Assembly: GCA_041674705.1 (NCBI GenBank) | Contig: JBAYVF010000002.1 | Span: forward strand, 78,330 to 142,329 | Length of the DNA: 64,000 nt | Direction: 5' to 3' | DNA from: Candidatus Omnitrophota bacterium | GTDB lineage: Bacteria; Omnitrophota; Omnitrophia; Omnitrophales; Aquincolibacteriaceae | Shown here: positions 23,611-44,669 of the stretch, piece after piece | Layout of the letters: the number at the start of each line of letters is the position of its first letter | How positions within the stretch are numbered: the first letter of the stretch is position 1 | Program-made: the position numbers and the translations under genes | The notes under the pieces: model-generated | Databases searched by the model: none | What the model saw: the letters and a program-made list of their open reading frames with translations, nothing else | What the model was told of the DNA's origin: nothing

Positions 23611-23621
23611 TTTAAAAGCTC

Positions 23622-27303: not shown

Positions 27304-27386
27304 ATGTTTAAATGGTCATATAAGAATATGTGAAAATAGCTATATATCCTATGAGCTGTAACTTTCAGGACATCAGGAGGTGCGCA

Positions 27387-27986: not shown

Positions 27987-27987
27987 A

Positions 27988-28767
27988 ATGAAAAAAAAGC
28001 TCGTAGGGAAATTAATCGCCCATGTGTTGGTCTTGGCTCCTGAGAAAGGTTCATTTCCCCACCTCCTTAAGATCGCAGTGCAATTCGCCGGGATATTCAA
28101 AGCTCGAGTAAGGCTACTCGAGTCTTTGAACTTTGCTTCCGAGAAACCCCGGATACCCGCGATCAAACCAGAAGAGACGGAGGCTTTTTATCGGGAATAC
28201 CTGGAGGCGCTAGCAGATAAAAAAGGGGTCGTGTGGGATGCGGTCATTTTTGGCGACTCATTGGAGAAAGCATTAAAAGAATTTTCTTCCGATGATCTTC
28301 TGGTGTTGCTGAAAGGTGATTCTTCATTTGATCTAAAAGAAGTTCTTCGTGAGGCACCCTGTCCAGTTCTTATCGTCCCTCAGGTTTTTACCGGCGATTT
28401 CAAAGAAGTTCTTTTGGCGCATGTTAACGGAAGGCCTAGCGACCGGGCGTTGGGGATTGCGGCTCTGTTGAATAAACAGGAAAAGGCTCATGTGAGAGTC
28501 CTCGCAACCGGAGCAGGTTCAGCGCTTCTCCTTAGGGCGGCTCAGTCCTGGGCGCAATATCTTTTTGAAACGTGGAACGCAAAAGCGGACTGCAAGATTT
28601 TACACGGCGATATGAAACAGATGCTTCTTCAGGAATGTGATTCGGGGAAAGCCGCTCTTTTGATCCTTGGCGCAAATGAATTGGAAGATTGGAGAGACCA
28701 TCGGTTCCGTCTCTTTTCGCATGCGATGGCGGAAGAAGCGAATTGTCCTGTTATGATGGTGAAATAA
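27988..28767 (+). CDS. tandem universal stress protein (UspA-family) domains
   Basis: Two half-repeats end in APCPVLIVPQ and ANCPVMMVK, typical Usp C-terminal strands. Confidence 0.5.
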   Translation: MKKKLVGKLIAHVLVLAPEKGSFPHLLKIAVQFAGIFKARVRLLESLNFASEKPRIPAIKPEETEAFYREYLEALADKKGVVWDAVIFGDSLEKALKEFSSDDLLVLLKGDSSFDLKEVLREAPCPVLIVPQVFTGDFKEVLLAHVNGRPSDRALGIAALLNKQEKAHVRVLATGAGSALLLRAAQSWAQYLFETWNAKADCKILHGDMKQMLLQECDSGKAALLILGANELEDWRDHRFRLFSHAMAEEANCPVMMVK

Positions 28768-28800
28768 AAACATTTTGAAGTGCGCTCGGAGGGTCCAGTG

Positions 28801-29292
28801 ATGAATATGAAAGTCTCGGATCTAATAAGCTCGGCGTCGATTTTGTTAAAGTTTGAAGCGAAAAACAAAAAAGATGTCCTAAGACAGCTAGCGGAAAAAT
28901 TCCATGAAGTTCATTCTGAGGTGGATCCGAAGCTTTTACTTTCGTCTCTGACGCACCGCGAAGGACTTGGCTCTACAGGGCTCGGAAACGGGATTGCAAT
29001 ACCTCATGCTAAGTCCGAACAGATTGCGAAGCCGAAGGGGTTTTTAGCGGTTTCTAAACAGGGGATCGATTTTCACGCGTTGGACGGGGAGCTTACCCAT
29101 GTTTTTTTTCTTATGGTCTATCCCCAGGAACCCGTGGGAGTTCACTTGGTGGCTCTGGCCAGTGTTGCGAGATTGTTGCGGGATGAATTTATCGTTGGAT
29201 TGATCCGGAAGTCAAAGACGTGCGGACAAGTCATTAAAATTATTGCCGAACAGGAATCGAGGCGGGCGGAACCGGTAGGTGTTGCATGTTGA
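28801..29292 (+). CDS. ptsN: PTS EIIA-Ntr (PtsN-like) regulatory protein
   Basis: REGLGSTGLGNGIAIPHAKSE phospho-His motif and LDGELTHVFFLMV. The ATG at 28801 after GGAGGG is preferred to the track GTG at 28780. Confidence 0.7.
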   Translation: MNMKVSDLISSASILLKFEAKNKKDVLRQLAEKFHEVHSEVDPKLLLSSLTHREGLGSTGLGNGIAIPHAKSEQIAKPKGFLAVSKQGIDFHALDGELTHVFFLMVYPQEPVGVHLVALASVARLLRDEFIVGLIRKSKTCGQVIKIIAEQESRRAEPVGVAC

Positions 29293-29332
29293 TCTTAAAT
29301 AAAGGCTGCTTTTAAAAACAGGGAGGTGTGAA

Positions 29333-29629
29333 GTGAGTATTGTAACGTCAAAAATTCGAACAACCACGAACGAACGCGCTGTGGAATTCCGGTTATTCGC
29401 GCCGCAGGCTAAAAGCGTCAATGTGTGCGGCACTTTTAATGAATGGCGTACCAATGCAGGCCGTATGACAAAAGATAATTCGGGTGTGTGGAAGGGTTCC
29501 GTCTCTTTGAGGCCCGGGAAGTATGAGTATCGATTTTTTGTGGATGGACAGTGGATCGATGATCCTCGCGCCCAAAAGACCGTGGCCAATAAGTTTGGTT
29601 CGAGGAATGCTGTTTTAGAAGTAAAATAA
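29333..29629 (+). CDS. stand-alone CBM48 / AMPK-beta glycogen-binding-domain protein
   Basis: VEFRLFAPQAKSVNVCGTFNEWRTNAGRMTKDNSGVWKGSVSLRPGKYEYRFFVDGQWIDDP, with a GTG start after GGGAGGTG. Confidence 0.65.
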   Translation: MSIVTSKIRTTTNERAVEFRLFAPQAKSVNVCGTFNEWRTNAGRMTKDNSGVWKGSVSLRPGKYEYRFFVDGQWIDDPRAQKTVANKFGSRNAVLEVK

Positions 29630-30101: not shown

Positions 30102-31766
30102 ATGTTTCGACCTAAATTAGCGACTTGCCTTAAGGATTATTCAAAGGATGTTTTTTTAAAAGATTGTATTGCGGGATTTGTTGTGGGAGTGGTCGCCATT
30201 CCTTTGGCGATTGCGTTCGCGATTGCCTCCGGCGTGTCTCCGGACAGGGGTCTTTTTACTGCGATCATTGCCGGTTTTCTCGTGTCGGTGCTTGGCGGAA
30301 GCCGCGTGCAGATCGGTGGACCGACCGGTGCTTTTGTGGTTATTGTGTATGGTGTTGTCCAGAAATATGGTATCGACGGTCTTGTTCTCGCTACATTGAT
30401 GGCTGGCATCCTGCTTGTGATCATGGGAGTTTCGAAACTCGGGACCGCAATTAAATTTATCCCTCATTCGGTGATCGTGGGGTTTACCAGCGGTATCGCG
30501 GTAGTCATTTTTTCATCGATGGTTAAAGATTTCCTGGGCTTGAGCATCGATAAAATGCCAGCAGAGTTCGTGGAAAAGTGGCACATGATCATCCAGCATC
30601 TTGGGACGGTGAATTATGCCGCGTTGATCCTGGGACTTGTCACGATTTTTATCATTGCCATGACTCCCAAGTTTTCAAAACGTGTCCCCGGAGCTCTTGT
30701 AGCCCTTGTGTCTGTCACCGTCATTGCGGCATTCTTTCACCTCCCCGTCGAGACGATCGGTAGCCGTTTTGGAGATCTGCCTCACGGATTACCGATGCCG
30801 CATTTTCCACTTCTTAGCCTTTCAAGGCTCCGGGAGCTTTTTCAACCCGCGGTAACGATTGCGCTCTTAGGAGCCATTGAATCATTGCTTTCCGCCGTGG
30901 TTGCGGACGGCATGATCGGTGCTAGGCATCGTCCCAATACCGAGCTCATCGGGCAGGGGATCGCCAACGTATGCTCCGCTCTTTTTGGCGGCATGCCAGC
31001 GACCGGTGCGATCGCCCGAACCGTAACCAATATTAAAAACGGCGGCAAAACGCCTGTTTCCGGCATCATTCATGCGATCACGGTGCTTCTCATCATGTTG
31101 TTCTTCGGGGCCTGGATTAAATTTGTGCCGCTGGCTTGTCTGGCAGGGATCCTGATCGTGGTGGCCTACTATATGAGCGAATGGCGGTCCTTTCGTGAGC
31201 TCCTCAAGGGATCTCGAGGCGGGAAGCTCGTTGTAGTTCTGACGTTTCTTCTAACAGTTTTTGTGGATCTTAACGTCGCTATTGAGGTTGGGGTGGTGCT
31301 GGCAGCATTTCTCTTTATGAAGCGCATGTCGGAGGTGACTGACGTTAAAATCTTTGCCAGGGAATATGAAGAAGATGAGAAAATGGAACGGGGAGAAGAC
31401 CTTCCCTTACCAGCTTTTTCACTTCCTTCGCGGGTGGAGGTTTACGAGATCAATGGCCCTCTTTTCTTTGGAGCCGCCAATAGCTTTGAAGAGGCTGAAA
31501 GGGAGGTTCATGAGAAACCCATGGTACGGATCCTGAGATTCCGGGACGTGCCTTTGATCGATTCGACAGGAATGCACGCTCTTAAAGGTTTTTACAATAA
31601 GAACAAGCGCGAAGGTATCCGTCTTGTGATCACAGGGCTTCATGTTCAGCCGCTCAACGAAATGGTCAAATCCAATCTTTATGACCTGGTCGGTGAGGAG
31701 AATGTGTTTGCGAGTATGCAAGAGTCGATCGCTCGCGCGGAAGTATTGTTGAAGGAAATGAAATAA
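30102..31766 (+). CDS. SulP-family anion transporter with a C-terminal STAS domain
   Basis: Polytopic N-domain (GxxxGIVAIPLAIAFA, GPTGAFVVIV) plus a STAS tail (VEVYEINGPLFFGAA...ILRFRDVPLIDSTG). Confidence 0.88.
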   Translation: MFRPKLATCLKDYSKDVFLKDCIAGFVVGVVAIPLAIAFAIASGVSPDRGLFTAIIAGFLVSVLGGSRVQIGGPTGAFVVIVYGVVQKYGIDGLVLATLMAGILLVIMGVSKLGTAIKFIPHSVIVGFTSGIAVVIFSSMVKDFLGLSIDKMPAEFVEKWHMIIQHLGTVNYAALILGLVTIFIIAMTPKFSKRVPGALVALVSVTVIAAFFHLPVETIGSRFGDLPHGLPMPHFPLLSLSRLRELFQPAVTIALLGAIESLLSAVVADGMIGARHRPNTELIGQGIANVCSALFGGMPATGAIARTVTNIKNGGKTPVSGIIHAITVLLIMLFFGAWIKFVPLACLAGILIVVAYYMSEWRSFRELLKGSRGGKLVVVLTFLLTVFVDLNVAIEVGVVLAAFLFMKRMSEVTDVKIFAREYEEDEKMERGEDLPLPAFSLPSRVEVYEINGPLFFGAANSFEEAEREVHEKPMVRILRFRDVPLIDSTGMHALKGFYNKNKREGIRLVITGLHVQPLNEMVKSNLYDLVGEENVFASMQESIARAEVLLKEMK

Positions 31767-31797: not shown

Positions 31798-32133
31798 ATG
31801 AAAAAGATCGATGACATGGTATTCAAGATAAAGGCGGATTTTTTGAAAGCTTTGGCGCACCCGGCCCGTCTTCAAGTCATTGAGTATCTCAAGGACGGAG
31901 AAGCCAGCGTGGGGAAATTGGTGCAAGCACTCGGGATCGAGCAGTCCAGTTTATCGCGGCATTTGGCCACGCTTCGGGATCTCGGTGTTTTGTCGGCGCG
32001 TCAGGAAAAGACGAATGTTTACTACAACCTTCAGGATCATGATATTTTTAAAGTGTTGAGGCCGATCGCGGAACTTCTTCGAAAAAAGTTAAGAAGGAGT
32101 GAGAAAATTCTGGAAAGTCTCGGAGAGGATTAG
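31798..32133 (+). CDS. ArsR/SmtB-family transcriptional regulator
   Basis: LKALAHPARLQVIEYLKDGEASVGKLVQALGIEQSSLSRHLATLRDLGVL. Confidence 0.85.
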   Translation: MKKIDDMVFKIKADFLKALAHPARLQVIEYLKDGEASVGKLVQALGIEQSSLSRHLATLRDLGVLSARQEKTNVYYNLQDHDIFKVLRPIAELLRKKLRRSEKILESLGED

Positions 32134-32204
32134 GGAGTGACATGGCTATGCGAGACAGAAATAGAGCGTTTTTGAAACGCATCTTTTAGAAAGCGGGAAA
32201 TGGT

Positions 32205-32888
32205 ATGCAGTTGACTTTTCGTTCGATAGAAAAGGCTTTCGAGATTGAGGAAAAAACACTTTATCATTGGCTTAATGACCGAGGAATGCCGGCCGTCAAA
32301 GCTAATGGGCAGTATTTTTTTAATTCCGTGGAGGTTCTGGAATGGGCGCTGAAATATAAGATCCCTTTGACGCTCGGAGCCTTGAAGCTCTGCGAAAAGA
32401 ATCGTCTGGGGCAGGATATTCTAACCCCTGCTCTTATCCGTGGAGGGGTTCACTTTGGGATCAAAGGCAATCGTCGCGAGGAGATCTTTGGGGAAGTCTT
32501 GAACTCCTTGCCACTCCCGGGCCATATTGACCGTGCTTCTTTGAAAGAAATGCTTATTTCCCGTGAGCAGTCAGGTGCGACCGGTATCGGAAACGGTATT
32601 GCCATCCCGCATGTCAAACACCCCGTGATCTTCGCCGGCCTCGACCCCGTGGTAGGTCTTTTCTTCCTGGAAACTCCGGTGGATTTTGCTGCTCTTGACG
32701 GGGAACGGGTCCACACGCTCTTTGTGATATTGTCTGGCTCTTTTAAAGGACATTTGTCTCTCTTGTCACGGTTGGCATTTGGTCTGCAGAATGAAAGCGT
32801 GAAGGCTGCCTTGGCACGTCGCTCGAATCCTGAGGAGATCCTCGCGACATTCCAGGTCGCGGAAGCAAAAACTGCGCGGACTTCTTGA
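32205..32888 (+). CDS. fusion of an excisionase/MerR-type HTH with a PTS EIIA (type 2, Ntr-like) domain
   Basis: N-terminus EKTLYHWLNDRGMPAVKANGQYFFNSVEVLEWA. EIIA motif GATGIGNGIAIPHVKHP. The stop TGA (32886-32888) overlaps the ATG (32888) of the next gene. Confidence 0.75.
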   Translation: MQLTFRSIEKAFEIEEKTLYHWLNDRGMPAVKANGQYFFNSVEVLEWALKYKIPLTLGALKLCEKNRLGQDILTPALIRGGVHFGIKGNRREEIFGEVLNSLPLPGHIDRASLKEMLISREQSGATGIGNGIAIPHVKHPVIFAGLDPVVGLFFLETPVDFAALDGERVHTLFVILSGSFKGHLSLLSRLAFGLQNESVKAALARRSNPEEILATFQVAEAKTARTS

Positions 32889-34771
32889 TGGAATTCTTAC
32901 TCGGTGGGTCATGGCCGGTTCCATTCGGCGAGTTTTCACTTAAGCTTGATCCCCTGAGCTTCGTATTTCTTATCGCGATCACGATTCTTGTGTTGTGCTC
33001 TGGGGTCTACGGTCTTGGGTACATGCGCCCTTACCAAGGAAAGAAACCTTTGGGGTTTCATGTATTTTTTTATCTGATCTTTGCCCTAGCTCTTGTTCTT
33101 ATCGTCACGGCCAACAATGTGATTCTTTTCCTGGGGGCGTGGGAGGCCATGACCCTTTCGACGTTTTTTCTGATCATCTTCAACGATGAGAAGTCCGCCG
33201 TGCGTAAGGCGGGATTTATTTATCTGATTGCGTCCCATTGCGCGACGTTCTTTCTTTTTCTAATGTTCTTTCTAATGGCTCACGCTTCCGGATCGATGGA
33301 TTTCAATATCATGGCGCGGACGAATTTCTCGCCTCTTTTCGCGGGGGCGGTCTTCCTTCTGGCTTTGGCGGGTTTCGGTGTCAAGGCGGGGTTCATTCCA
33401 GTGCATATTTGGTTGCCCTATGCCCATCCGGTGGCGCCTTCCCATATCTCCGCGCTTTTGTCAGGGATCTCGATCAAGATGGGGATCTACGGGATCTGCC
33501 GCGTGCTATGGATCATGAAAGTCCTTCCGGCCTGGTGTGGGTACGTTCTTTTGATGATCGGCGCTATCTCCGGCCTTATGGGTGTTCTCTATGCTCTTGG
33601 ACAACACGAGTTGAAGAAGTTATTGGCTTATCACAGCGTTGAAAATATCGGCATTATTGCCTTGGGGCTCGGAGTGGGGGTCTTGGGTCGGAGTTATCAG
33701 ATTCCCTTTCTCGCGGTGCTTGGATTTGGCGGAGGCCTCCTGCATGTTCTGAACCACTCGCTTTTCAAAGGGCTTCTGTTTTTGGGAGCAGGTTCAGTCA
33801 TTCAAAAAACGCACTCCGGAGAGATGGATCATCTTGGAGGCTTGGCGAAGACTCTGCCGGTGACAAGCGTTCTTTTTATGGTGGGGGCGCTCTCGATCTG
33901 CGGTTTGCCGCTCTTTAACGGGTTCATCAGTGAATTCATTATCTATTTCGGACTTTTTCAGGGACTTTTCGGGCTTCCTGTGCACGGCGTAATCGCTTCC
34001 TCTATAGGGATCTTGTCCCTGGCTCTTATGGGGGCCCTCGCATTGGCCTGTTTTAGTAAAGTCTATGGGACTGTTTTCCTTGGCAAACCTCGTGAAGGTT
34101 TAAGAGGAGCCTCACATGCGCATCTAAAAATCGGGGAAGCGACATCCGCGAGAACCCCAGAGGAGCAAGGTCGCTGTCTTGAGGAGACGTCAAAATGGAT
34201 GCTTCTTCCCATGATGCTTCTGGCGGGATTATGTATCTGGATCGGGCTTGTTCCCCGAAGCGTGACCGGTTTGGTCTTTCTTGGCGGGGCTTACCTTACG
34301 CATGTGGATCTCTCAACGATCCCGATCGAACAGGTTCTCACGCCTTTAACGATGGTCATCCGGATGGCGTTTCTTTTTCTCTCACTCATCTTAGGATTAA
34401 TCGCTGTTCGTCGGCTACTCTTAGGGGCGGCGCCTATGCCGATCCGGGAGACGTGGAGCTGTGGTTTCGCGCAGGTCTCTTCGAGGTTTCAATACACGTC
34501 CGCGTCTTTTGCCCGACTGATCGTTAATCTGATGAAACGTACGCTGCTTTTCCGTCGCCATGGGGGAGAGGTCTCCGGAGCTTTCCCGGAGAAGACGCAC
34601 TTAGCTTCTTCTGTTCATGATGCTTCTGAAGAGTTGGTTTTTGCGCCCGGCCTTGCTTTTCTGAATGATTTGTCTAAAAAACTGGGCCATAGCCGTATTC
34701 GTCACATCCAGCTTTACTTAATGTACATTCTGCTGTTTCTCGTGTTTTTACTCGTTTGGAAATTAAAATAA
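32888..34771 (+). CDS. NuoL/HyfB/MnhA-like antiporter-type membrane subunit
   Basis: Polytopic, with WLPYAHPVAPSHISALLSG, LLAYHSVENIGII and HSLFKGLLFLGAGSV motifs. Confidence 0.85.
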   Translation: MEFLLGGSWPVPFGEFSLKLDPLSFVFLIAITILVLCSGVYGLGYMRPYQGKKPLGFHVFFYLIFALALVLIVTANNVILFLGAWEAMTLSTFFLIIFNDEKSAVRKAGFIYLIASHCATFFLFLMFFLMAHASGSMDFNIMARTNFSPLFAGAVFLLALAGFGVKAGFIPVHIWLPYAHPVAPSHISALLSGISIKMGIYGICRVLWIMKVLPAWCGYVLLMIGAISGLMGVLYALGQHELKKLLAYHSVENIGIIALGLGVGVLGRSYQIPFLAVLGFGGGLLHVLNHSLFKGLLFLGAGSVIQKTHSGEMDHLGGLAKTLPVTSVLFMVGALSICGLPLFNGFISEFIIYFGLFQGLFGLPVHGVIASSIGILSLALMGALALACFSKVYGTVFLGKPREGLRGASHAHLKIGEATSARTPEEQGRCLEETSKWMLLPMMLLAGLCIWIGLVPRSVTGLVFLGGAYLTHVDLSTIPIEQVLTPLTMVIRMAFLFLSLILGLIAVRRLLLGAAPMPIRETWSCGFAQVSSRFQYTSASFARLIVNLMKRTLLFRRHGGEVSGAFPEKTHLASSVHDASEELVFAPGLAFLNDLSKKLGHSRIRHIQLYLMYILLFLVFLLVWKLK

Positions 34772-34789
34772 CAAAAAAAGAGGCGGCTT

Positions 34790-35725
34790 GTGAGTTCTGT
34801 TCTGAGTATGGCGTTTCCAATATTGTCTCACTGGCTGATCGTTTGTTTTCTTTCGCCGCTTTTTCTCGGGGTGATCGCCAAGGTTAAAGCTTTTTTCTCC
34901 GGAAAAGTGGGTCCGTCGGTATTTCAGCCCTATTTTGATCTGGCAAAACTTTTTCGTAAGAAGTGCGTTTACAGTTCTACCGTGACATGGATCTTCCGTG
35001 CGGCTCCGGTTGTGATTCTCGCCGTCATGTTGGTTTTGGCGCTCTTAGTGCCCTTTGGTAGATTCAAAGCGCCGGTGCAATTTTCGGGCGATATCCTTTT
35101 GGCGGTCTATCTCTTGGCTTTGGGCAGGTTCTTTATGATCCTAGCTGCCCTGGACACGGGGTCCAGTTTCGAGGGGATGGGGGCGAGTCGTGAAGCGTAT
35201 TTTTCGTGTTTATCCGAATTGGCGATGTTTATGAACTTTATCACGCTCGCTTTGCTCGCCAAGAGCATTTCTCTTTCTCAAATGGTCGGGGCGCATATTC
35301 CTATGACCTGGGGCGGCCTGGAACCGGCATTGCTTTTGGTCGTGGCGAGTTTTTTTATTGTGCTCTTGGCGGAAAACTGTCGCATTCCGGTGGACGATCC
35401 TGAGACGCATCTGGAGCTTACCATGATCCACGAAGTGATGATCCTGGATCACAGCGGCGTTGATCTAGCCTACATGCTTTATGCTGCGGCGATGAAATTA
35501 TTTATTTTCTCGGGGCTTCTGGTTTCTATCATCATCCCGGTTCGGACCGGAGATCATTGGACGGATATGGCGATCTTCTTCGGGGCGATGTTGGGACTAG
35601 CCGTTCTCATAGGAATCGTAGAATCCACCATGGCCCGTCTTCGGCTGAATCGCGTGCGGCTTTTATTATTGATCTCGTTCGCGTTGGCTTTCTTTGGTCT
35701 CATCGTCACTTTGTGGAGGGCGTAG
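34790..35725 (+). CDS. NuoH/HycD/HyfC-like membrane subunit
   Basis: LLAENCRIPVDDPETHLELTMIHEVMILDHSG corresponds to the AExNRxPFD...E loop of HycD/NuoH. Confidence 0.8.
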   Translation: MSSVLSMAFPILSHWLIVCFLSPLFLGVIAKVKAFFSGKVGPSVFQPYFDLAKLFRKKCVYSSTVTWIFRAAPVVILAVMLVLALLVPFGRFKAPVQFSGDILLAVYLLALGRFFMILAALDTGSSFEGMGASREAYFSCLSELAMFMNFITLALLAKSISLSQMVGAHIPMTWGGLEPALLLVVASFFIVLLAENCRIPVDDPETHLELTMIHEVMILDHSGVDLAYMLYAAAMKLFIFSGLLVSIIIPVRTGDHWTDMAIFFGAMLGLAVLIGIVESTMARLRLNRVRLLLLISFALAFFGLIVTLWRA

Positions 35726-35728
35726 GGT

Positions 35729-36382
35729 ATGATGTCCTGGATCGATGTGAGCTGTATTTTGGCCGTGTTCCTGGCGTTGACCATCCTGGCAACCCATCGC
35801 ATCGTGGGAATGATCAAGATCATTGCTTTGCAGTCGTTCCTCTTGAGCTTTGTCCCCTTATTCTTACACGCGGAAGCCATTTCAGGCCGCGATATCATGC
35901 TTTCAGGCGGAACCATGGTCCTCAAGGCCGTGTTGGTGCCTGCCATTTTATTCTGGACGATCCGGCACATTTCCATGCGGTCTGAGATCAAGCCCATTAT
36001 CGGGCTTGGGACCTCGATCCTCTGCGGGGCAGTCTTGATCGCCGTTGCTTTCTGGATCTCTTTGTCACTTCGTTTGCCGGGGAAATTCGAGTCGAGTCTG
36101 GTGCTGCCGTGTTCTCTCGCGACCATGCTTTTGGGTTTCATGATCATGGTGACCCGAACCCGCGCTATTACCCAGGTGTTGGGCTATTTGGTGATCGAGA
36201 ACGGGATCTTTCTTTTCGCGAGTTCTTTATACGATGCGATGCCGATGCTCATTGAAATGGGTATTCTGCTGGATATTTTTGTCGCGGTTTTCATCATGGC
36301 TATCGTCCTGAATCACATCAATGAAGAATTTGAACGGACCCGGAGCCCCGTACACCGGCCTAAATGGGGAGAGAGCCAGTGA
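35729..36382 (+). CDS. HyfE/HycP-like small membrane subunit
   Basis: 217 aa. The ITQVLGYLVIENGIFLFA motif is typical of HyfE. Confidence 0.7.
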   Translation: MMSWIDVSCILAVFLALTILATHRIVGMIKIIALQSFLLSFVPLFLHAEAISGRDIMLSGGTMVLKAVLVPAILFWTIRHISMRSEIKPIIGLGTSILCGAVLIAVAFWISLSLRLPGKFESSLVLPCSLATMLLGFMIMVTRTRAITQVLGYLVIENGIFLFASSLYDAMPMLIEMGILLDIFVAVFIMAIVLNHINEEFERTRSPVHRPKWGESQ

Positions 36383-37791
36383 TGTTGTCGCTTTTAATTG
36401 CCATCCCGTTCTTAGGCGCCCTTGCCGTATTGTTACCGGTAAGGACTATGTTCAGGGTGTGGTTTTTATTCGCGATCTCTTTCGTTCATGCCGTCGGCAC
36501 GGCGTCTTTCTGGTGGCGATTGCCAGCCTCTGAGTGGCAGGGTTATTTAACTCTGGATCCTCTTGGGCTTATCCTGCTCTCGGTCATCAGTCTTCTTTTT
36601 CTTTCCGTATCTTTTTTTATGATCGGCTATTTTCAACATGAGCACAGGAGCAACCGGATATTTACGGCGTCCATCCTGGCGCTCTTGTCCACGATGACGC
36701 TCGTTTCAGTAAGTTATCATATGGGGCTTATGTGGGTGGCGATCGAGACAACCACGCTCTTTAGCGCGCCTTTGATCAGCTTCCATCGCAATTGGGGAAC
36801 TCTGGAAGCGACCTGGAAGTATTTACTGGTTTGCTCCGTGGGGATCGCTTTGGCGCTTATGGGGACGTTTTTTCTTGCCATTTCCGCGCATGACGTGCAC
36901 ACGCTTCTTTTGCCGTCGATCCTCAGCGGCGCGTCGTCTCTCTCGGTCAATTGGCTGAAGCTGAGTGTTATTTTTCTGTTTGTGGGTTATGGCTGCAAGA
37001 TGGGGCTCGCCCCGATGCACAGTTGGAAGCCGGAAGCCTATGGTCAGGCGACCGGGATGGTGGGCGTTTTGATGGCCGGGGGATTGACGCAGTGCTCTTT
37101 CCTGGCTCTGATGCGGGTAAGTCAGATCTGTTACAAAACAGGACTCAGTGATTTTTACGCGTCTATCTTGATCGTCACAGGTATTTTGTCGCTTGTAGTC
37201 CCCGCGATACTTCTCTTAGGCGAAAAAAAGCTCAAAAGGTCTTTCGCGTTTTCTTCGGTCGAGCATATGGGGCTTTTGGTCCTGGGGTTGGGCCTGGGAG
37301 GGGTCGGCATCTTGGGGGCCTTATTCCATATGATCAACAACGCCTTGGCAAAAGTAGTGATGTTCCTTACGGCCGGGTCTGTGGCGCAGAAGTATGGGTC
37401 TTCGCACGCCACAGAAGTTCGCGGGGTCATCCATATTTATCCCGTAACGGGCATTCTCCTTATTGTGTCATTGCTCGCTGGGACCGGAATGTTTCCGTTC
37501 GCCACGTTCCATAGCGAGCTTTTGATCATCAACGCCGCGATCATTTCGAAGCATTATGTTTTAGCGGGCGGGATCATTTTGTGCCTCGCTATTATCTTTA
37601 TTGGAATAGCCCGGATCGTTCTGGAGTTTGTTTACGGGAAGCCGACGGAACCGGTCTTGGATAAAAAAGAGAATTTTTTCATCAACATTACGATCGCGTC
37701 AGCGGCCGTGGCGCTCATAGGATTTGGTTTGTGGATGCCGGCTCCCTTGAGTCGCGTGCTTCATGATGCGGTGGCTTTGATCGTAGGGTAA
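36382..37791 (+). CDS. NuoN/NuoM/HyfF-like antiporter-type membrane subunit
   Basis: Polytopic. Motifs VGYGCKMGLAPMHSWKPEAY and SSVEHMGLLVLGLG. The ATG at 36382 overlaps the upstream TGA. Confidence 0.85.
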   Translation: MLSLLIAIPFLGALAVLLPVRTMFRVWFLFAISFVHAVGTASFWWRLPASEWQGYLTLDPLGLILLSVISLLFLSVSFFMIGYFQHEHRSNRIFTASILALLSTMTLVSVSYHMGLMWVAIETTTLFSAPLISFHRNWGTLEATWKYLLVCSVGIALALMGTFFLAISAHDVHTLLLPSILSGASSLSVNWLKLSVIFLFVGYGCKMGLAPMHSWKPEAYGQATGMVGVLMAGGLTQCSFLALMRVSQICYKTGLSDFYASILIVTGILSLVVPAILLLGEKKLKRSFAFSSVEHMGLLVLGLGLGGVGILGALFHMINNALAKVVMFLTAGSVAQKYGSSHATEVRGVIHIYPVTGILLIVSLLAGTGMFPFATFHSELLIINAAIISKHYVLAGGIILCLAIIFIGIARIVLEFVYGKPTEPVLDKKENFFINITIASAAVALIGFGLWMPAPLSRVLHDAVALIVG

Positions 37792-37822
37792 AAGGTTTTT
37801 TTTGCTCACGGAATGAGGGTTT

Positions 37823-39334
37823 ATGGAATTGTTTAATGGCGGTCATGTTGCGTTAAAAGATATTCCGCTCTTGGCGGAAAAGGAATTTCGCGAAGAAGTG
37901 CTTCTTCGTTGCCGTGACGGCGCCCGCCTTGCAAACTTTTTCGGAAGTCTGGAGGACGGGGGGAACGTTCGCCTTATTGCAATCCTGTCGGTTGATGAAG
38001 AATCGGAACTGCAGATATTTTCGACCAAAGTTCTGGCGGAATCTCCACGCTATAAATCTTTGACCAAAGAGCTCCTCCAGGCGCATTTGTTCGAACGCGA
38101 GATCGCAGAGCAGTGGGCGATCCTTCCCGAAGGGCACCCGTGGCTCAAGCCGGTAAGATATCACACGAATTATCGTGCCGTTCCCGATCTTTGGAAGGAT
38201 ATCACGCAGCAGACTATTCCGGGATCTTATCCTTTCTATGCCGTGGGGGGCGAGGAGGTCCATGAAGTGGGCGTGGGGCCGGTGCATGCCGGTATTATCG
38301 AACCCGGACATTTCCGGTTTCAATGTCATGGCGAAGAGATCATCCATTTGGAGACCCAATTAGGATACCAGCATCGAGGCATTGAGCCTCTCATGTGTGG
38401 AAGGGATTTGAAACGAGGGGTGCTTTTAAGCGAGTCCATCGCAGGGGATACATCGATCGGCCATTCCACAGCGTTCTGTGAAGTGGTGGAGTCCCTGGCG
38501 AGTTGCAACGTCCCGATCAAAGCGCAGGCCATTCGTGCGATCGGATTGGAATTGGAACGGCTCGCGAATCATGTGGGCGATCTGGGCGCTTTGGGAATGG
38601 ATGCCGGCTTTTCGCCGACCAGCGCGTATTTTGGCCGTATGCGCGGGGATTATCTAAATTTGTTGCTGGAACTGACGGGAAACCGTTTTGGTAAGGGGCT
38701 GTGTCGGCCGGGAGGGGTCCTTTTTGATATGGATACCGCAATGGCCGAGGATTTTTGCCGTAAACTCAAGCGTTATAAAAAAGAATTTGAAGATGTGAGC
38801 GAATTGCTTTTCACTCGGACGTCGGTCCTTGCGCGTTTTGAAGGTATCGGGGTGGTGCCTCTGAAGATCGCGAAAAGCCTGGGGTTGGTCGGTCCCGTTG
38901 CGCGTGCGAGCCAGCTGGAACAAGACGTGCGTATTGATCACTCCTCCGGGATGTGGCAATTTTATCATGTCCCCATTTCTTTGGCCGCGACGGGGGATGT
39001 GTATGCGCGCGCTTTGGTGCGCCGACAGGAAGTGATGCGTTCGCTGGAATTTCTGCTGAAGCTTTTACCCTCTCTACCCAAGGGGGGGATTTTTTCCTCT
39101 CTCGGTCCTCTGAAGACGGATACGCTTGCCCTTTCTCTGGTGGAGGGATGGCGCGGTGAGATCATGCATGTCGGCATGACGGATAGCCAAGGCGCCCTGA
39201 TGCGGTACAAGATCAAAGACCCGTCGTTTCATAATTGGTTTGCCTTAACCTTGGCGATGCGTAACCAGGAAATATCTGATTTTCCCTTATGCAATAAAAG
39301 CTTCAATTTATCCTATTGCGGGCATGACCTGTGA
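37823..39334 (+). CDS. NuoC-NuoD / HycE-like large subunit lacking the [NiFe] cysteine ligands
   Basis: Has GPVHAGIIEPGHFRF and LGYQHRGIE. It carries ESIAGDTSIGH where hydrogenases have ERxCGxCxxxH, and NLSYCGHDL where they have DPCxxCxx[HR]. Confidence 0.85.
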   Translation: MELFNGGHVALKDIPLLAEKEFREEVLLRCRDGARLANFFGSLEDGGNVRLIAILSVDEESELQIFSTKVLAESPRYKSLTKELLQAHLFEREIAEQWAILPEGHPWLKPVRYHTNYRAVPDLWKDITQQTIPGSYPFYAVGGEEVHEVGVGPVHAGIIEPGHFRFQCHGEEIIHLETQLGYQHRGIEPLMCGRDLKRGVLLSESIAGDTSIGHSTAFCEVVESLASCNVPIKAQAIRAIGLELERLANHVGDLGALGMDAGFSPTSAYFGRMRGDYLNLLLELTGNRFGKGLCRPGGVLFDMDTAMAEDFCRKLKRYKKEFEDVSELLFTRTSVLARFEGIGVVPLKIAKSLGLVGPVARASQLEQDVRIDHSSGMWQFYHVPISLAATGDVYARALVRRQEVMRSLEFLLKLLPSLPKGGIFSSLGPLKTDTLALSLVEGWRGEIMHVGMTDSQGALMRYKIKDPSFHNWFALTLAMRNQEISDFPLCNKSFNLSYCGHDL

Positions 39335-39365
39335 AGTCAGATCGCAGTAGGACCATGGTGACACT

Positions 39366-40049
39366 ATGCTGAAAATTTTAATGACACGTTTCAGACAGGG
39401 ATGCCGGACCTTGTCTTTTCCAAAGGGGAAGCTTCCCGTCCTGCCGGCGCGCTATCGAGGCCGGCCCATCATCGCGGCTCAGGAAGACAGCGTGGATCTC
39501 GGGGAAATAACTTATATCCCGGATAGCGGCATTCGACACTCCAACGATTTTCGGATGGCAGTATCGAAGCGTGAAGATCTCATTCTCAAGAGCGATGTGG
39601 ACGCGCTCGCGTATGCCTTGAATAAAAAAATCGCGAAGATGTTTGGCCGGTCGCTCAAACTTCGGCAGGTCTCGGCCGGGGGTTGCAATGCTTGTGAGGC
39701 GGACATTAATGTCCTTAACACGCCCGTTTTTGATCTGAGTCGTTTTGGTATCCAGTTTGTGGCCTCGCCCCGTCATGCCGACGGGCTTGTTGTCACGGGT
39801 CCTGTTACGCGTAATATGAGAGAGGCGCTTCTGAAAACTTACGAAGCTGTGCCGGATCCCAAGATCGTGATTGCCATCGGCGCTTGCGCGATTTCCGGAG
39901 GCATTTTTGCAAATAGCCCTGAGTCTTCCAAGGGGCTGGACACGATTCTCCCCGTCGATCTTTACATCCCCGGGTGCCCGCCGCATCCCCTGACCATCCT
40001 CGATGGATTCTTACGATTGATGGGAAGAATCAAAAAAGATCAGCCATGA
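39366..40049 (+). CDS. NuoB/HycG-like small subunit retaining the four-Cys 4Fe-4S site
   Basis: GGCNACE, GACAISGG and IPGCPPHP. Confidence 0.85.
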   Translation: MLKILMTRFRQGCRTLSFPKGKLPVLPARYRGRPIIAAQEDSVDLGEITYIPDSGIRHSNDFRMAVSKREDLILKSDVDALAYALNKKIAKMFGRSLKLRQVSAGGCNACEADINVLNTPVFDLSRFGIQFVASPRHADGLVVTGPVTRNMREALLKTYEAVPDPKIVIAIGACAISGGIFANSPESSKGLDTILPVDLYIPGCPPHPLTILDGFLRLMGRIKKDQP

Positions 40050-41416
40050 AGCGTAGGATCGCGGAAGAGACGATTCTTTTTATCAGTGTTTTGAAGTGGT
40101 TTATTCTCGCGAGCATTATTGGAGTCGTTGTTGGCTCTGCAACGGCGGTGTTTCTTAAACTGCTTAGCTGGAGTGTGGCCTTCGCAGAAAGGAGCACTTA
40201 TTCTTTCCTTCTGCTCCCTGTAGCCCTTTTTCTAAGTGCCCTGATTATCAAATACTTCGCACCGGATGCAGAGGGCCATGGCACCGAGAAGGTCATCGAA
40301 GCTATCCACAAATCTTCTGGAAAGATCAAGGCGGCTGTAGTTCCGGTCAAACTGGTTGCAACGATCATTACGATCGCTTTGGGCGGTTCAGCAGGAAAGG
40401 AAGGCCCCTGTGCCCAGATCGGGGGAGGGCTTTCCTCCATTTTTGCCGATTTGTTCAAATTTGACGACAAGGATCGAAAAAAACTGGTGATTTGCGGTAT
40501 TAGCGCCGGATTTGCCTCGGTTTTTGGAACCCCGATTGCCGGGGCCCTTTTTGGTGTTGAGGTTCTTTTTGTCGGAAGTATTCTTTACGATGTGCTGTTG
40601 CCGTCGTTTATCGCAGGTGTTACGAGCTATCATGTTTCGAACGCTCTCGGAATCTCCTATTTTTATCACCCCATGAATTTTGTTCCTCAATTCAGCGAAT
40701 TCTTTTTCATCCAAATATGTTTTGCCGGAGTTTTTTTTGGTATCTGTGCCCTTCTTCTTGTGGAGATTTTAAAGTTAGGTAAATTTCTTTCTCGAAAACT
40801 AAAGCTATGGGCGCCTTTTAAAGGATTGGTCGGCGGATTTGTGCTTGTAGTTCTGGCGTTTCTGCTGTCAAAACAATATCTCGGGCTGGGGCTGGATACG
40901 ATCGAGTCATGTTTGCAGGGGCAAAACGTTCCGTGGCATGCGACTTTTTCTAAAATGTTGTTCACCTCTGTAACGCTGAACTTCGGGGGCAGCGGAGGCA
41001 TCGTAACGCCTATCTTTTTTGTGGGAGCTACGGCGGGATCCCTCTATGCGAGTTGGGCCGGGCTAGATCCTGCGACTTTATCAGCGATCGGTTTTGTCGC
41101 CGTCCTTGCGGGTGCTGCCAATACTCCGATCGCTGCGAGCATTATGGCCATCGAAGTCTTTGGTCCCTCCATCGCTCCTTATGCATCCATTGCTTGCGTC
41201 ATCAGTTTTTTGATGACAGGCCACCGGAGTGTTTATGACTCCCAAATTTTAGCGGTCAAAAAGACCCCCTCGGTGGATGTGGCCTTAGGTAAAGAGATGG
41301 GGGATCTGAAAGCGCAGTTAAGCCTTCGGGAAAAGAGTTGGTCTCAAAGTATCAAGCGCTTTTATGTTTTTATCAGAAAGCGATTTGGGCGATCCAAAAC
41401 CCAAAGGCCAAATTGA
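40046..41416 (+). CDS. ClC-family chloride channel or H+/Cl- exchanger
   Basis: GGSAGKEGP, GFASVFGTPIAGALFGVE and GGIVTPIFFVGA. The ATG at 40046 overlaps the upstream TGA (ATGA). The track N-extension from 39974 is rejected. Confidence 0.85.
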   Translation: MKRRIAEETILFISVLKWFILASIIGVVVGSATAVFLKLLSWSVAFAERSTYSFLLLPVALFLSALIIKYFAPDAEGHGTEKVIEAIHKSSGKIKAAVVPVKLVATIITIALGGSAGKEGPCAQIGGGLSSIFADLFKFDDKDRKKLVICGISAGFASVFGTPIAGALFGVEVLFVGSILYDVLLPSFIAGVTSYHVSNALGISYFYHPMNFVPQFSEFFFIQICFAGVFFGICALLLVEILKLGKFLSRKLKLWAPFKGLVGGFVLVVLAFLLSKQYLGLGLDTIESCLQGQNVPWHATFSKMLFTSVTLNFGGSGGIVTPIFFVGATAGSLYASWAGLDPATLSAIGFVAVLAGAANTPIAASIMAIEVFGPSIAPYASIACVISFLMTGHRSVYDSQILAVKKTPSVDVALGKEMGDLKAQLSLREKSWSQSIKRFYVFIRKRFGRSKTQRPN

Positions 41417-42201: not shown

Positions 42202-42840
42202 ATGATACTCTTTGGCATGAGGAGAACCTTCTTGGGGAACTTGAGCGATGAAACTAAAAAGGGATCACGTCGGCACCGGCTCCGAGCCGTTGATCTTCAA
42301 AATATCGAAGGCGATTCCGTTGCGCGGCTCACGGGATTCGAGAACGAAGTTTTAACTGGAATACGAACTTTCGGGGATTCTCCGCTAGAAAAACTGATTT
42401 CCGAGGAAGAGGCTCCCTCCCTGCGCAATCAGGATATCCAGAGACTACGGCGACTTCGACGTTATATCAAATACGCCCGGCTTACTCCGAAACAAAGGCG
42501 GGCTTATGAACTGTTTTCTCTCAGCCGGGACTCCGATATGACACTCCGTAAACTTTCCGCAAAGCTTGGGATCAGTCTCTCAAGCGCATGGGCCAGAGTT
42601 AAAGGGGCTGTTAAGCGGCTTGAGCAGATCAAGAAACGCCAAGAAGAAGGCGCAAAACTGAAGGCGATCCTGGATGGAGTCCTTTACGCCGGGAAACTGA
42701 AGCGTGTCTTCCTCCTTTATTTCGAAAGATGCTGGCCTCCGCCTATGATCGCCAGATCTCTCCACTCGAACCTTTCCACGATCTACAGCAATCTCCGCAC
42801 GATACGCTTTCTTGCCAAGGCCTATTCTTCGGAAAAATAG
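42202..42840 (+). CDS. hypothetical DNA-binding protein with two sigma-70 region-4-like HTH units
   Basis: LTPKQRRAYELFSL...MTLRKLSAKLGISLSSAWARVKGAVKRL, and a second weaker unit LKRVFLLYFE...MIARSLHSNLSTIYSNLRTIR. Confidence 0.4.
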   Translation: MILFGMRRTFLGNLSDETKKGSRRHRLRAVDLQNIEGDSVARLTGFENEVLTGIRTFGDSPLEKLISEEEAPSLRNQDIQRLRRLRRYIKYARLTPKQRRAYELFSLSRDSDMTLRKLSAKLGISLSSAWARVKGAVKRLEQIKKRQEEGAKLKAILDGVLYAGKLKRVFLLYFERCWPPPMIARSLHSNLSTIYSNLRTIRFLAKAYSSEK

Positions 42841-43143
42841 GATCCTTCTGGCAGGTACGAAAAATAATTACGCACCTGTAGAAAAATCCTCGAACAAAAC
42901 TGGCTGATTTGCCCTAATGTAAGGGGACCTTTTGAGGTTTTAGCCTCAGATCTTCTTCCCCAAGCCGCTACGTATAGGGGCGGCGGGATTCGTTTTGGCG
43001 AGTCCCGCGACTTTCGGGGACCTAAAGCCCTGCATTCCCTGATATTCTGAGATTAAAGGCCTCAAGGGAATGGCTAGCTGTCCGGTCTTTAAGGGAACAA
43101 ATTCTTGCCCGATTGGGCAAACTTAAAGGAGCCGGATTCTGTC

Positions 43144-43464
43144 ATGAACCAAGTGCCATCCGAAGTTCTCTCCACTGCGAAACCCGCATTGCGTTCCGTC
43201 TGTTCTGACGAATTCCCTAAGCGAAGCCGTATGCTTATTGCTTTTTTTAGGCATACACAGGATGGGGAAAAAGGGTGGGGTCCAGAGTTTCCCCCGGCAT
43301 TTTCTCGTAAGTCCTTTACCTGCCTCGCAAAAGCCGCTCGACTTCTTTCCCGACCAATCCCTCTCTTCATAAGCATTTTGAGGGGAGATGGATTGGTCGG
43401 GAAAGGGATGCTTGTTGCTCGGCAGGTAAAGCATTCGTTTGATGCCGGGGGGAATGGGTTATGA
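43144..43464 (+). CDS. hypothetical protein (element cargo)
   Basis: ATG at 43144 after AAGGAG. The stop overlaps the next ATG (ATGA at 43461-43464). Confidence 0.35.
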   Translation: MNQVPSEVLSTAKPALRSVCSDEFPKRSRMLIAFFRHTQDGEKGWGPEFPPAFSRKSFTCLAKAARLLSRPIPLFISILRGDGLVGKGMLVARQVKHSFDAGGNGL

Positions 43465-44390
43465 AGTTGATGGTAAGGGATTGCAATATTCTTGCGTGGC
43501 TCTTGCATATGAAATTCAGTCATCTGGATCAGATCGGCCGGAAGTTTTTTCCGGGATGTAATATTCACCGGGCACCGTACAGGCGAATGCTGAAGCTGAT
43601 GGATGCGGGGCTTGTGGCTACCCGGAAGGTTTATAGCGATCCGAGGGATTTGTATATTCCGACACAGGCGGTGATAAAAGTGTTGGAGGACAGTGGCAAT
43701 CCATTTGCCATCGCGCTTGCCAAGGATAAGACCTTTCCCAATTACTTTCACGATCGGGGTTTGGTCGATATGCGGATACTCTTTGAGGAGCTTGGGATCG
43801 GCCTCTGGATACCGGAACGGGTGATCCGTTCCGTGAAACCCCGTGGAGGTTCGCCGGACGCTTTGATCTTAAACGTGGATCAAGTCTATGCGGTTGAATA
43901 TGAGCGGACAGAAAAGGAGCCTGCCCGGTACAAGAAGATATTCGACCGCTTCAACTATTCGGACAAGTTCGCAAAGGTGCTATACATTCTGCCGACTGAA
44001 AAACGGATCGAATCCTTGAAAAAGAAAATGGGCTATATCTGGCAGAAGTTTTACTTCGTAAGCGAAGAGTGCCTGCATCTCGAAAAGGGGGATGCTGTTT
44101 CCCGCTCATCCCAAGGAGAACTGCCTATAAGGGCACTCGCAGAATACTCCATGACCGGAAGTCTTCATGATATGACCCGGGAAGAGATCAAAGAGGTGGT
44201 GGAATCCAAAACTCCGGGTGCATGGCAGAATAGCAAGCTATTCGCTTCATACGGTGGCGGGGGCGATCCGTGTGACGATGATTCTGATTTTGACGATGAT
44301 ACGGATTCGGACGATGATGATGATCCGCAAATAGATCCGGGAGAAAACCGGGATGGCGACGATGATGATGAGGAGGACGAAGGCCGATGA
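43461..44390 (+). CDS. replication-relaxation-family-like protein with a poly-acidic C-terminal tail
   Basis: N-terminal winged-helix-like VRDCNILAWLLHMKFSHLDQIGRKFF...MLKLMDAGLV. Tail DDDSDFDDDTDSDDDDDPQIDPGENRDGDDDDEEDEG. Confidence 0.45.
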   Translation: MKLMVRDCNILAWLLHMKFSHLDQIGRKFFPGCNIHRAPYRRMLKLMDAGLVATRKVYSDPRDLYIPTQAVIKVLEDSGNPFAIALAKDKTFPNYFHDRGLVDMRILFEELGIGLWIPERVIRSVKPRGGSPDALILNVDQVYAVEYERTEKEPARYKKIFDRFNYSDKFAKVLYILPTEKRIESLKKKMGYIWQKFYFVSEECLHLEKGDAVSRSSQGELPIRALAEYSMTGSLHDMTREEIKEVVESKTPGAWQNSKLFASYGGGGDPCDDDSDFDDDTDSDDDDDPQIDPGENRDGDDDDEEDEGR

Positions 44391-44605: not shown

Positions 44606-44669
44606 AACGAAGATCTGGAAAATCACCAACCCTAGGGAAAGGAGGTTAGGAAAAGATGAAACAACGAAA

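Follow-up and report, generated by a model that had tools for sequence, protein, structure and literature searches.

Six adjacent genes in a 64,000-nucleotide stretch of a Candidatus Omnitrophota genome (contig JBAYVF010000002.1, positions 78,330 to 142,329; hereafter the window, with positions counted from its first letter) encode what their sequences identify as an Ehr (energy-converting-hydrogenase-related) complex, which is complex-I-like and descended from group-4 [NiFe]-hydrogenases. All six open reading frames (ORFs) lie on the + strand at 32885/32888-40049, with gaps of at most 35 nt or overlaps between them in the ORF map. Pfam and NCBIfam matches assign them as EhrA (Proton_antipo_M/hydrogenase-4 B), EhrB (NADHdh), EhrC (hydrogenase-4 membrane subunit HyfE), EhrD (Proton_antipo_M/hydrogenase-4 F), EhrL (Complex1_49kDa+30kDa) and EhrS (Oxidored_q6), in agreement with an initial annotation of this DNA, which had described six contiguous or overlapping genes of these subunit types. 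That annotation also spoke of a six-subunit unit; this stands for the six ehr genes but not as a limit of the unit, since genes on both sides are coupled to them by overlaps. Upstream, the stop codon of a gene for a PtsN-like protein with an N-terminal helix-turn-helix domain (HTH-EIIA) overlaps the ATG of ehrA (TGATG), so that the two are translationally coupled, and downstream the ATG of a CLC-family gene overlaps the ehrS stop codon (ATGA).

The family was reportedly named Ehr by Coppi in 2005 and by Marreiros et al. in 2013. Its defining features are present here: a large and a small subunit homologous to those of group 4, the large one lacking the NiFe cysteines (PMC6349859, PMC10284858), together with NuoH-like and NuoL/M/N-like membrane subunits in the same cluster. 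Ehr complexes are known in Geobacter, Nitrospira and Mycobacterium tuberculosis among others (PMC7894505, PMC10284858, PMC6728331), and papers on Margulisbacteria and Nitrospira place Ehr near group 4f hydrogenases and give its function as unknown (PMC6349859, PMC10284858). The initial assignment to the Ehr type thus agrees with the subunit set and the loss of the NiFe cysteines, and its statement that Ehr function is unknown agrees with published work (PMC10284858, PMC6349859, PMC7894505); the literature searched, which left many subscription papers uncovered, held no biochemical characterization of any Ehr.

For comparison, 97 related loci were mapped: 10 from genomes, 80 from metagenomes (those most similar to the query protein) and 7 fetched by protein look-up. 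Neighbours were mapped by tblastn and hidden Markov models (HMMs); greedy longest-ORF maps were misled by antisense ORFs in high-GC contigs. EhrL was compared across 49 diverse full-length relatives (33-59% identical) and across 91 loci with a GC content of 0.34-0.75, and residue conservation counts cover 41-91 loci depending on the gene. The genome loci closest to the window are Omnitrophota metagenome-assembled genomes (MAGs), and an NCBI protein from an Omnitrophota MAG matches EhrL with 100% identity. The order EhrA-B-C-D-L-S is kept wherever a related locus covers it, with the sole exception of locus L070, where EhrS lies upstream.

The former NiFe site and the membrane arm

A phmmer alignment of EhrL with E. 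coli HycE (7z0s_E, E=3e-45) sets RVCGICGFAH against SIAGDTSIGH and DPCY against NLSY, and the next cysteine of HycE, presumably within DPCYSC, falls on Gly500. The four NiFe-ligand positions are thus occupied by Ala207, Thr210, Ser497 and Gly500, a replacement common to 90-91 of the 91 loci. With all four ligands replaced, the window complex cannot be a [NiFe]-hydrogenase. The large subunit had initially been read as lacking the NiFe cysteines, and the alignment to HycE that had been proposed as a check of this reading restores no ligand cysteine.

We considered and rejected the possibility that misalignment had hidden the cysteines of a true [NiFe]-hydrogenase, and we attach a negligible probability to it. 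The HMM alignment to HycE gives Ala, Thr, Ser and Gly at the ligand positions, and C499, the lone cysteine near the C-terminal motif, is variable (C/S/A) across the family. Five true hydrogenases recovered in the same search carry CG[AVS]C and NLCYSCxDR in the matching columns, so that the sister hydrogenases show CGxC and CYSC exactly where EhrL does not. The nearest cysteine-containing sequences share an NKSFNLCYSCxDR context, as would be expected of hydrogenases that form a close sister group. HycE has a cleavable C-terminal extension; EhrL has none and ends five residues past the motif tyrosine, at the position of the mature C-terminus. The ORFs scanned in the window (those of at least 90 aa from greedy longest-ORF selection, plus two small upstream ORFs) include no hyp, hycI, fdh or nuoEFG gene, as had been noted initially for maturation, formate dehydrogenase and NuoEFG genes. 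The flanks of the first 95 related loci show no recurrent hyp or endopeptidase maturation gene, and the scanned ORFs of the window encode no molybdopterin or Fer4 protein.

What has replaced the ligands is itself conserved. The window motifs ESIAGDTSIGH and NLSYCGHDL belong to the family motifs E-x-[IV]-[ASC]-G-D-[TS]-x-x-x-H and N-K-S-F-N-L-S-Y-x-G-x-D-L, defined over the 49 relatives and 91 loci; Gly208 and Asp209 occur in 91/91 loci, and Ser497, Tyr498, Gly500 and Asp502 in 90/91. From these alignments, the former NiFe pocket is best described as remodelled into an invariant Asp/Thr/Ser/Tyr/Asp site, rather than decayed. One third of all invariant EhrL columns among the 49 relatives come from the beta1-beta2 loop VGPxHAGxxEPGHFRF, the link between active site and membrane arm in complex I and Mbh. 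Of the 91 loci, 90-91 keep its residues H155, E160 and H163.

The membrane arm retains the canonical buried charges seen in alignments to HycC, MbhH and complex-I subunits, with 90-100% conservation across 41-58 loci. For EhrA, 39-41 of 41 loci keep E87, K167, K198, H291, K295 and E350; the EhrB loop residues R198, P200, D202, D203, E209 and E215 are invariant in 54 loci, as is the membrane residue Glu157 of EhrC in 58. EhrD conserves E128, K212, K330 and E385, the replaced lysine of transmembrane helix 8 being the one exception. The membrane arm therefore looks functional.

The ratio of nonsynonymous to synonymous substitution rates (dN/dS), determined against four relatives with an amino acid identity of 78-96% depending on the gene, is 0.01-0.13 in nine genes (SulP, ArsR, EIIA and the six Ehr genes), values that are approximate because dS is about 1, near saturation. 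This purifying selection speaks against a decaying, non-functional hydrogenase relic, as was asserted for the Ehr of Geobacter KN400 (PMC13194489). The loss of catalytic and relay cofactor ligands would fit a relic; the replacement motifs, however, are invariant across GC 0.34-0.75, gene order is kept apart from the relocated EhrS of L070, ehrL is free of stop codons in the four loci checked, and Geobacter Ehr subunits have been detected by proteomics (PMC7894505). Strong selection and motif conservation together effectively rule the relic out, and we consider it very improbable.

EhrS and the loss of iron-sulfur ligands

Alignment to MbhJ and HycG places C107, C110, C174 and C204 of EhrS at the four proximal-cluster positions, so that the small subunit retains all four proximal cysteines, as first annotated. 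Ahead of its NuoB domain, EhrS has a region of about 95 residues, in which most relatives carry two CxxCxxCxxxCP motifs, an eight-cysteine 2x[4Fe-4S] domain. A profile of this region matches E. coli HycF from residue 1 (7z0s_F, 8.7e-25), followed by NuoI and MbhN subunits, and a pairwise match of the remnant gives 1e-4. Precomputed Pfam assignments for the Phycisphaerae and Hydrogenedentes proteins (L096, L097) show Fer4 and Oxidored_q6 in one polypeptide. Because the profile of the region matches HycF and both domains occur in single proteins of relatives, EhrS is assigned as a HycF-HycG fusion. The initial statement that the window has no HycF/NuoI-type ferredoxin subunit is thus right for a separate gene only, since residues 1-95 of EhrS are identified by this match as a degenerate HycF domain.

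In the window, EhrS has lost all eight relay cysteines and about 31 aligned positions of this domain, and relay cysteines are down to 0-4 in all relatives with an EhrL at least 58% identical as well. A second group with a similar loss comprises L032, L076 and L090, with L035 intermediate. The ferredoxin remnant evolves with a dN/dS of 0.09-0.14, compared with 0.02-0.07 for the NuoB domain. The proximal positions read C-C-C-C in 74 of 78 complete EhrS sequences; in L089, L092 and L094 they read D-C-D-N and in L077 C-A-S-W. The D-C-D-N group also has only 4 cysteines left in its HycF domain, and its three EhrS proteins are mutually only 65-81% identical, with synonymous sites saturated. The loci without a proximal cluster show protein identities of 62-92% and otherwise intact operons with no stop codon in ehrL, and their EhrL pocket and loop motifs are unchanged. 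HTH-EIIA, ArsR and a malic enzyme with an ACT domain (ACT-malic enzyme) surround the 12-cysteine form (L097) and the 4-cysteine forms (window, L013, L016) alike. As different parts of the electron path were dropped in different lineages while the rest of the complex was kept, we infer that the conserved function is independent of electron flow through the chain.

These losses bear on the classical proposal for Ehr, an ion pump driven by ferredoxin or another low-potential donor, in which electrons would enter at the small subunit and an acceptor (a quinone, a sulfur compound or another) would be reduced at or near the former NiFe pocket while H+ or Na+ is pumped; in the window clade, the donor would dock directly at the proximal cluster. 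We regard it as possible, although on balance unlikely. The proximal cysteines kept here and in 74/78 relatives would suit it, as would the complete three-cluster chain, homologous to that of HycF/HycG, in most relatives and the PFOR gene that adjoins the operon in L013. MBS/Mbx, a respiratory complex of hydrogenase origin that has given up H2 production, illustrates moreover how a relative without NiFe can act as a ferredoxin-dependent reductase; Mbx also appears in PMC6349859. In Geobacter, proteomics gave higher Ehr levels in cultures grown on formate than in those containing hydrogen (PMC7894505). However, both relay clusters are gone in the whole window clade although selection is still strong, the proximal cluster has been lost in two other lineages, and the flanks of the first 95 loci show no recurring redox partner, whether donor or acceptor module. 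The position of the complex-I quinone tyrosine, placed by alignment of the NDUFS2 motif, is Gly208 in EhrL. Finally, the Omnitrophota MAGs of Ace Lake are described as fermenters, only some of which encode Nqr (PMC8542988).

The PtsN-like partner and the gene neighbourhood

Across phyla, HTH-EIIA is the most conserved neighbour of ehr. Of the 39 mapped loci with enough upstream DNA, 28 have it immediately before ehrA, including loci whose EhrL is just 47-54% identical, and these 28 span three phyla: Omnitrophota, Hydrogenedentota (a Hydrogenedentes MAG) and the phylum of the cultured Phycisphaerae bacterium RAS1. Within Omnitrophota, the match lists of HTH-EIIA and of the Ehr proteins are consistent with one-to-one co-occurrence. 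The protein has the EIIA_2 fold, with a phosphorylatable histidine in a GxGxAxPH motif (His136 in GNGIAIPH) that is invariant in 19 HTH-EIIA sequences, and its family profile matches PtsN structures at about 1e-23, compared with about 1e-7 for sugar EIIA. Since it scores 64.5 against the cut-off of 138.7 for the NCBIfam PtsN equivalog and carries an extra HTH domain, we call it PtsN-like and not an orthologue. HTH-EIIA is probably the regulator dedicated to the complex, or else a partner with a regulatory role.

In the 11 loci without HTH-EIIA, a replacement partner was sought and rejected, the upstream genes being unrelated (TPR, RtcR, MsrB, thioredoxin-reductase-like, insertion-sequence transposase and extra antiporter subunits). 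In L070 (3484-11461, GC 0.35) the PtsN-like gene lies inside the operon, in the order EhrS - HTH-EIIA - EhrA-B-C-D-L. Two tandem HTH-EIIA paralogues precede ehrA in some loci (L018, 332-1821; L019, 1008-2593; L023, 2911-4300; L042, 3447-4982). Many loci have two EhrA copies, and the duplications of EhrA and HTH-EIIA are not strictly correlated.

The ArsR gene named in the initial annotation is borne out by its profile matches (Table 1). It is conserved in close relatives of the window, and the Hydrogenedentes MAG has an ArsR 38% identical to that of the window upstream of its ehr operon. In the 71-nt gap between the ArsR and HTH-EIIA genes, the sequence GCGTTT-TTG-AAACGC (32166-32180) is perfectly palindromic and runs into a T-rich tail. 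This palindrome could be a terminator or an operator; it is not conserved, because the gap in L003 and L004 is only about 20 nt.

Table 1. Genes and domains of the ehr operon and its immediate neighbours in the window.
Feature	Position	Strand	Matches
SulP/SLC26-family anion transporter, C-terminal STAS	30102..31766	+	Pfam Sulfate_transp 2.7e-88 + STAS
ArsR/SmtB-family regulator, zero Cys	31798..32133	+	HTH_5 1.6e-12; NF033788 83 bits vs cut-off 55
PtsN-like (EIIA-Ntr type) protein, N-terminal HTH_17	32205..32888	+	PTS_EIIA_2 7.8e-21; HTH_17 weak
EhrA, HyfB/HycC/NuoL-like antiporter-type subunit	32888..34771 (ATG 32888; alternative TTG 32885)	+	NF005086 hydrogenase-4 B 2.4e-154; 7z0s_C 2.5e-63
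EhrB, HycD/NuoH-like subunit, charged coupling loop RIPVDDPETHLELTMIHE	34790..35725	+	Pfam NADHdh 1.9e-35
EhrC, HyfE-like (NuoK/J-related) small membrane subunit	35729..36382	+	NF008556 hydrogenase-4 membrane subunit 7.4e-24
EhrD, HyfF/NuoN-like antiporter-type subunit	36364..37791	+	NF005044 hydrogenase-4 F 3.8e-84; MbhH 3e-23
EhrL, HycE/NuoCD-like large subunit without NiFe ligands	37823..39334	+	HycE 3e-45
EhrS (whole ORF), NuoB/HycG-like small subunit	39366-40049	+	Pfam/NCBIfam
EhrS N-terminal domain, vestigial HycF/NuoI-type 2x[4Fe-4S] ferredoxin	39366..39650	+	domain profile to HycF 7z0s_F 8.7e-25
EhrS HycG/NuoB domain, four proximal [4Fe-4S] Cys	39651..40049	+	Oxidored_q6 1.6e-32; MbhJ 1.7e-39; HycG 1.4e-37
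CLC-family chloride channel or H+/Cl- exchanger	40046..41416	+	Voltage_CLC 5.3e-75

Transporters and enzymes of carbon metabolism adjoin the operon in several lineages. The window SulP scores 516 bits against the NCBIfam DauA model (cut-off 614) and 292 bits against BicA, and is thus closest to the DauA type, below curated cut-offs. SulP is syntenic in L001-L004, L006, L011, L014 and L017 and occurs in at least four arrangements, among them upstream in Omnitrophota and L055 and downstream in L028 (same strand) and L054 (opposite strand). In four loci, ehrS is followed by genes for small STAS proteins. In the Omnitrophota clade with an EhrL 58-76% identical, tightly packed upstream genes encode NhaD, isocitrate dehydrogenase and ACT-malic enzyme. 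The NhaD Na+/H+ antiporter is in the same operon in L011 and L014 and the isocitrate dehydrogenase lies beside ehr in L014, both above their NCBIfam cut-offs; ACT-malic enzyme lies beside ehr in L011, L013, L016 and L097, with the 53%-identical enzyme of the Hydrogenedentes locus downstream of ehrS. The CLC gene is specific to this genome and absent downstream in L001-L006; in L011 an MFS gene takes its place after ehrS. Two candidate patterns were discarded: neighbours labelled 'CitMHS' are not citrate/malate carriers, since NCBIfam assigns them as NhaD Na+/H+ antiporters, and a 16-locus cluster of two-component/sigma-54 neighbours is heterogeneous in size, distance and strand and was treated as background.

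By analogy, this neighbourhood could point to a vectorial inorganic-carbon machine, in which the former gas channel and pocket of the hydrogenase would hydrate CO2 or dehydrate bicarbonate, antiporter-like proton removal would drive the reaction via an ion gradient, and a SulP bicarbonate transporter and Na+/H+ antiport would work alongside. The recurrent, variously arranged SulP flanks, NhaD in the operon of L011 and L014, the CO2-using or CO2-releasing neighbours (ACT-malic enzyme, isocitrate dehydrogenase, phosphoenolpyruvate carboxykinase (PEPCK)) and a function apparently independent of Fe-S clusters would all accord with it. Nevertheless, we consider it rather improbable: no carbonic-anhydrase-like, DabA or CupA protein was found, the pocket residues Asp, Thr/Ser, Ser, Tyr and Asp make no typical Zn site, SulP is nearer to DauA (C4-dicarboxylate) than to BicA and is present in only about 12 loci, and malic enzyme and isocitrate dehydrogenase equally indicate dicarboxylate catabolism or NADPH supply. 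The search for DabA (PF10070) and CupA/CupS covered the window and the called genes of L011, L013, L014, L015, L096 and L097.

Farther out, no operon boundaries stood out clearly in scans for promoters and terminators, apart from a perfect -35/-10 pair (TTGACA-16-TATAAT, + strand, 27276-27303), which precedes ORFs reaching to 29629 and co-oriented with SulP and ehr. The genes of 27276-29629 (a 218-aa ORF without assignment, a Usp-domain protein, a stand-alone PtsN/FruA-like EIIA of 170 aa and a 98-aa CBM48/AMPK-beta-like ORF) are not conserved upstream of ehr in relatives. The region 18187-26162 encodes MetH (B12-dependent methionine synthase), a GTP-dependent PEPCK on the opposite strand, an SDR protein and an aminotransferase; this PEPCK, 8 kb upstream of the operon, is another CO2-handling enzyme. 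An uninterrupted ORF of 5836 aa spans 32-17542 (+), with an N-terminal HAD-hydrolase and GT2 glycosyltransferase, a TPR match and a DnaJ domain near residue 4530, most of its length having no Pfam match. On the downstream side, within 44968-46864, a 613-aa large serine recombinase (Resolvase + Recombinase + Zn_ribbon_recom), preceded by unannotated ORFs at 42202-44921, ends in or beside a tRNA-His on the opposite strand (46788-46864). This region may bound an integrated element directly downstream of the ehr-CLC-response-regulator block.

Proposed function and comparison with known systems

We tentatively favour, with confidence a little short of even, the reading that the complex is an ion-translocating machine that needs no through-electron transfer, answers to PtsN-type control and has ties to ion and anion transport. 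In the mechanism proposed, the core function would do without electrons passing between a donor and an acceptor along the Fe-S chain, and the complex would be a proton- or sodium-translocating device in which events at the protonatable former NiFe pocket are coupled, via the complex-I-type loops, to the antiporter-like channels, and which would be driven by, or interconvert, H+ and Na+ gradients in a manner resembling Mrp-type antiporters. The remaining proximal cluster would have a structural role or, at the utmost, gate the complex by its redox state. Expression or activity would depend on whether the PtsN-like protein is phosphorylated, which would link the complex to the phosphoenolpyruvate/pyruvate and nitrogen state, and the complex would serve the cellular Na+/H+ and anion economy represented by SulP, CLC, NhaD, MFS and malate/isocitrate (de)carboxylation. 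As background, the Ace Lake Omnitrophota MAGs have been ascribed Na+-based Rnf/HppA bioenergetics (PMC8542988). The initial annotation had proposed a redox- or ion-driven machine with an unidentified donor and acceptor; the redox part of that proposal loses weight, as clusters are lost while the pocket, loops and ion-path residues remain invariant.

Several points weigh against this reading. The window EhrS retains all four proximal cysteines, about two thirds of scored EhrS proteins retain all eight relay cysteines, and most lineages keep all twelve. Because most lineages keep both the proximal cluster and the relay cysteines, electron transfer may still matter in them, and the forms with few clusters could be exceptions whose function has shifted. 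Ion specificity, direction and driving force are not readable from sequence. Mrp works without a NuoB/NuoD/NuoH module, so that the retention of this module under strong constraint, itself judged by approximate dN/dS values, is puzzling for a pure antiporter. HTH-EIIA may be just a transcription factor, and the locus and neighbour counts are not phylogenetically independent.

A broader speculation, which we consider improbable, is that Ehr in general may be a gradient-driven non-oxidoreductase whose former NiFe pocket, with its old gas and proton paths, serves either vectorial CO2/bicarbonate interconversion or cation binding for Na+/H+ exchange, under control of the nitrogen phosphotransferase system (PTS-Ntr) and tied to SulP/NhaD and to malate/isocitrate (de)carboxylation. 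If the CO2/bicarbonate reading were true, it would represent a third independent recruitment of complex-I modules for inorganic carbon, after NDH-1MS and DAB.

The Ehr family and its enigma are already known, its function having been open since about 2005; the present locus is a new Omnitrophota member, a variant with the relay clusters deleted. The family is widespread, with 882 representatives of 50%-identity clusters at E<=1e-30 by phmmer, a count that includes true hydrogenases. We did not find the HycF-HycG fusion, the recurrent Fe-S loss, the PtsN-like partner or the transporter/malic-enzyme neighbourhood in the literature searched, which left many subscription papers uncovered, so that priority cannot be asserted. 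If the comparative signals hold, labels such as 'hydrogenase', 'NADH-quinone oxidoreductase subunit C' and 'formate hydrogenase HycE' mislead reconstructions of H2 metabolism. Repeated Fe-S loss next to an invariant pocket, loops and channels would then amount to a falsifiable claim, namely that the core function is independent of electron transfer, and the PtsN-like partner and the cultured host Phycisphaerae RAS1 would provide experimental handles. The complex would be a natural experiment on the complex-I coupling machinery with the redox chemistry removed.

Among characterized systems, E. coli Hyf/Hyc (7Z0S) gives the best sequence match for every subunit (HycE 3e-45, HycC 2.5e-63, HycG 1.4e-37 and, with the domain profile, HycF 8.7e-25), and the NCBIfam Hyf B/E/F models are the top matches of the window membrane subunits. 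Unlike the window, Hyf/Hyc has NiFe cysteines, separate HycF/HycB ferredoxins, FdhF, the HycI protease and Hyp maturases. The window locus shares with group 4 [NiFe]-hydrogenases the proximal [4Fe-4S] cluster motif of the small subunit but not the four NiFe cysteines, and it differs from formate hydrogenlyases FHL-1 and FHL-2 in having no FdhF or HycB/HycF ferredoxin proteins in the window. Nor is it a complex I/NDH-1, as the window gives no NuoA or NuoEFG match and the NuoI-type domain has no cysteines. Chains of Pyrococcus furiosus MBS/Mbx (6U8Y) are detectable homologues, yet they are weaker matches than those of FHL and Mbh (MbsL 3.7e-19, compared with 3e-45 for HycE); MBS, which depends on ferredoxin, is built of 13 subunits, with a complete Mrp module and a NuoI-like protein that carries clusters as a subunit of its own, in contrast to the six-gene layout found here.

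The nearest described counterparts are themselves Ehr complexes. The Geobacter sulfurreducens genes GSU0739-45, whose role has never been investigated, encode EhrA-1, EhrC, EhrL and EhrS among others (PMC7894505). In Geobacter Ehr (GSU0739-0745: EhrA-1, A-2, B, C, D, L, S), the subunit types match those of the window and the large subunit is devoid of NiFe cysteines. Its gene order can be inferred from subunit names alone, and a two-EhrA layout is seen in L018, L019, L096 and L097; the window differs in its single EhrA and in the loss of the eight relay-cluster cysteines from EhrS. The M. tuberculosis locus Rv0081-Rv0087 ('hyc'), compared here by description, likewise combines six hydrogenase-like genes with a regulator upstream of them, Rv0081, which we take to be ArsR-type; its order presumably starts with the small subunit, as in L070. 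We know of no PtsN-like gene at that locus, which is regulated by DosR/MprA, unlike the window. It has been likened to EHR complexes and thought to be a non-hydrogenase, so that the parallel drawn in the initial annotation was already in print (PMC6728331).

DAB (DabAB) and cyanobacterial NDH-1MS likewise employ complex-I-type antiporter subunits in non-respiratory, gradient-coupled chemistry tied to bicarbonate transport, an analogy that here comes from the gene neighbourhood alone, with no DabA or CupA homologue. From Mrp (6Z16, 7QRU, 7D3U), which has no NuoB/NuoD/NuoH-like module, the window locus differs in possessing only MrpA/D-like and NuoK-like parts, alongside NuoH/B/D-like subunits, and in the absence of MrpB/E/F/G. 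The antiporter-like subunits of both share the same Glu/Lys chain, and the action proposed for Ehr would, like that of Mrp, be independent of redox chemistry.

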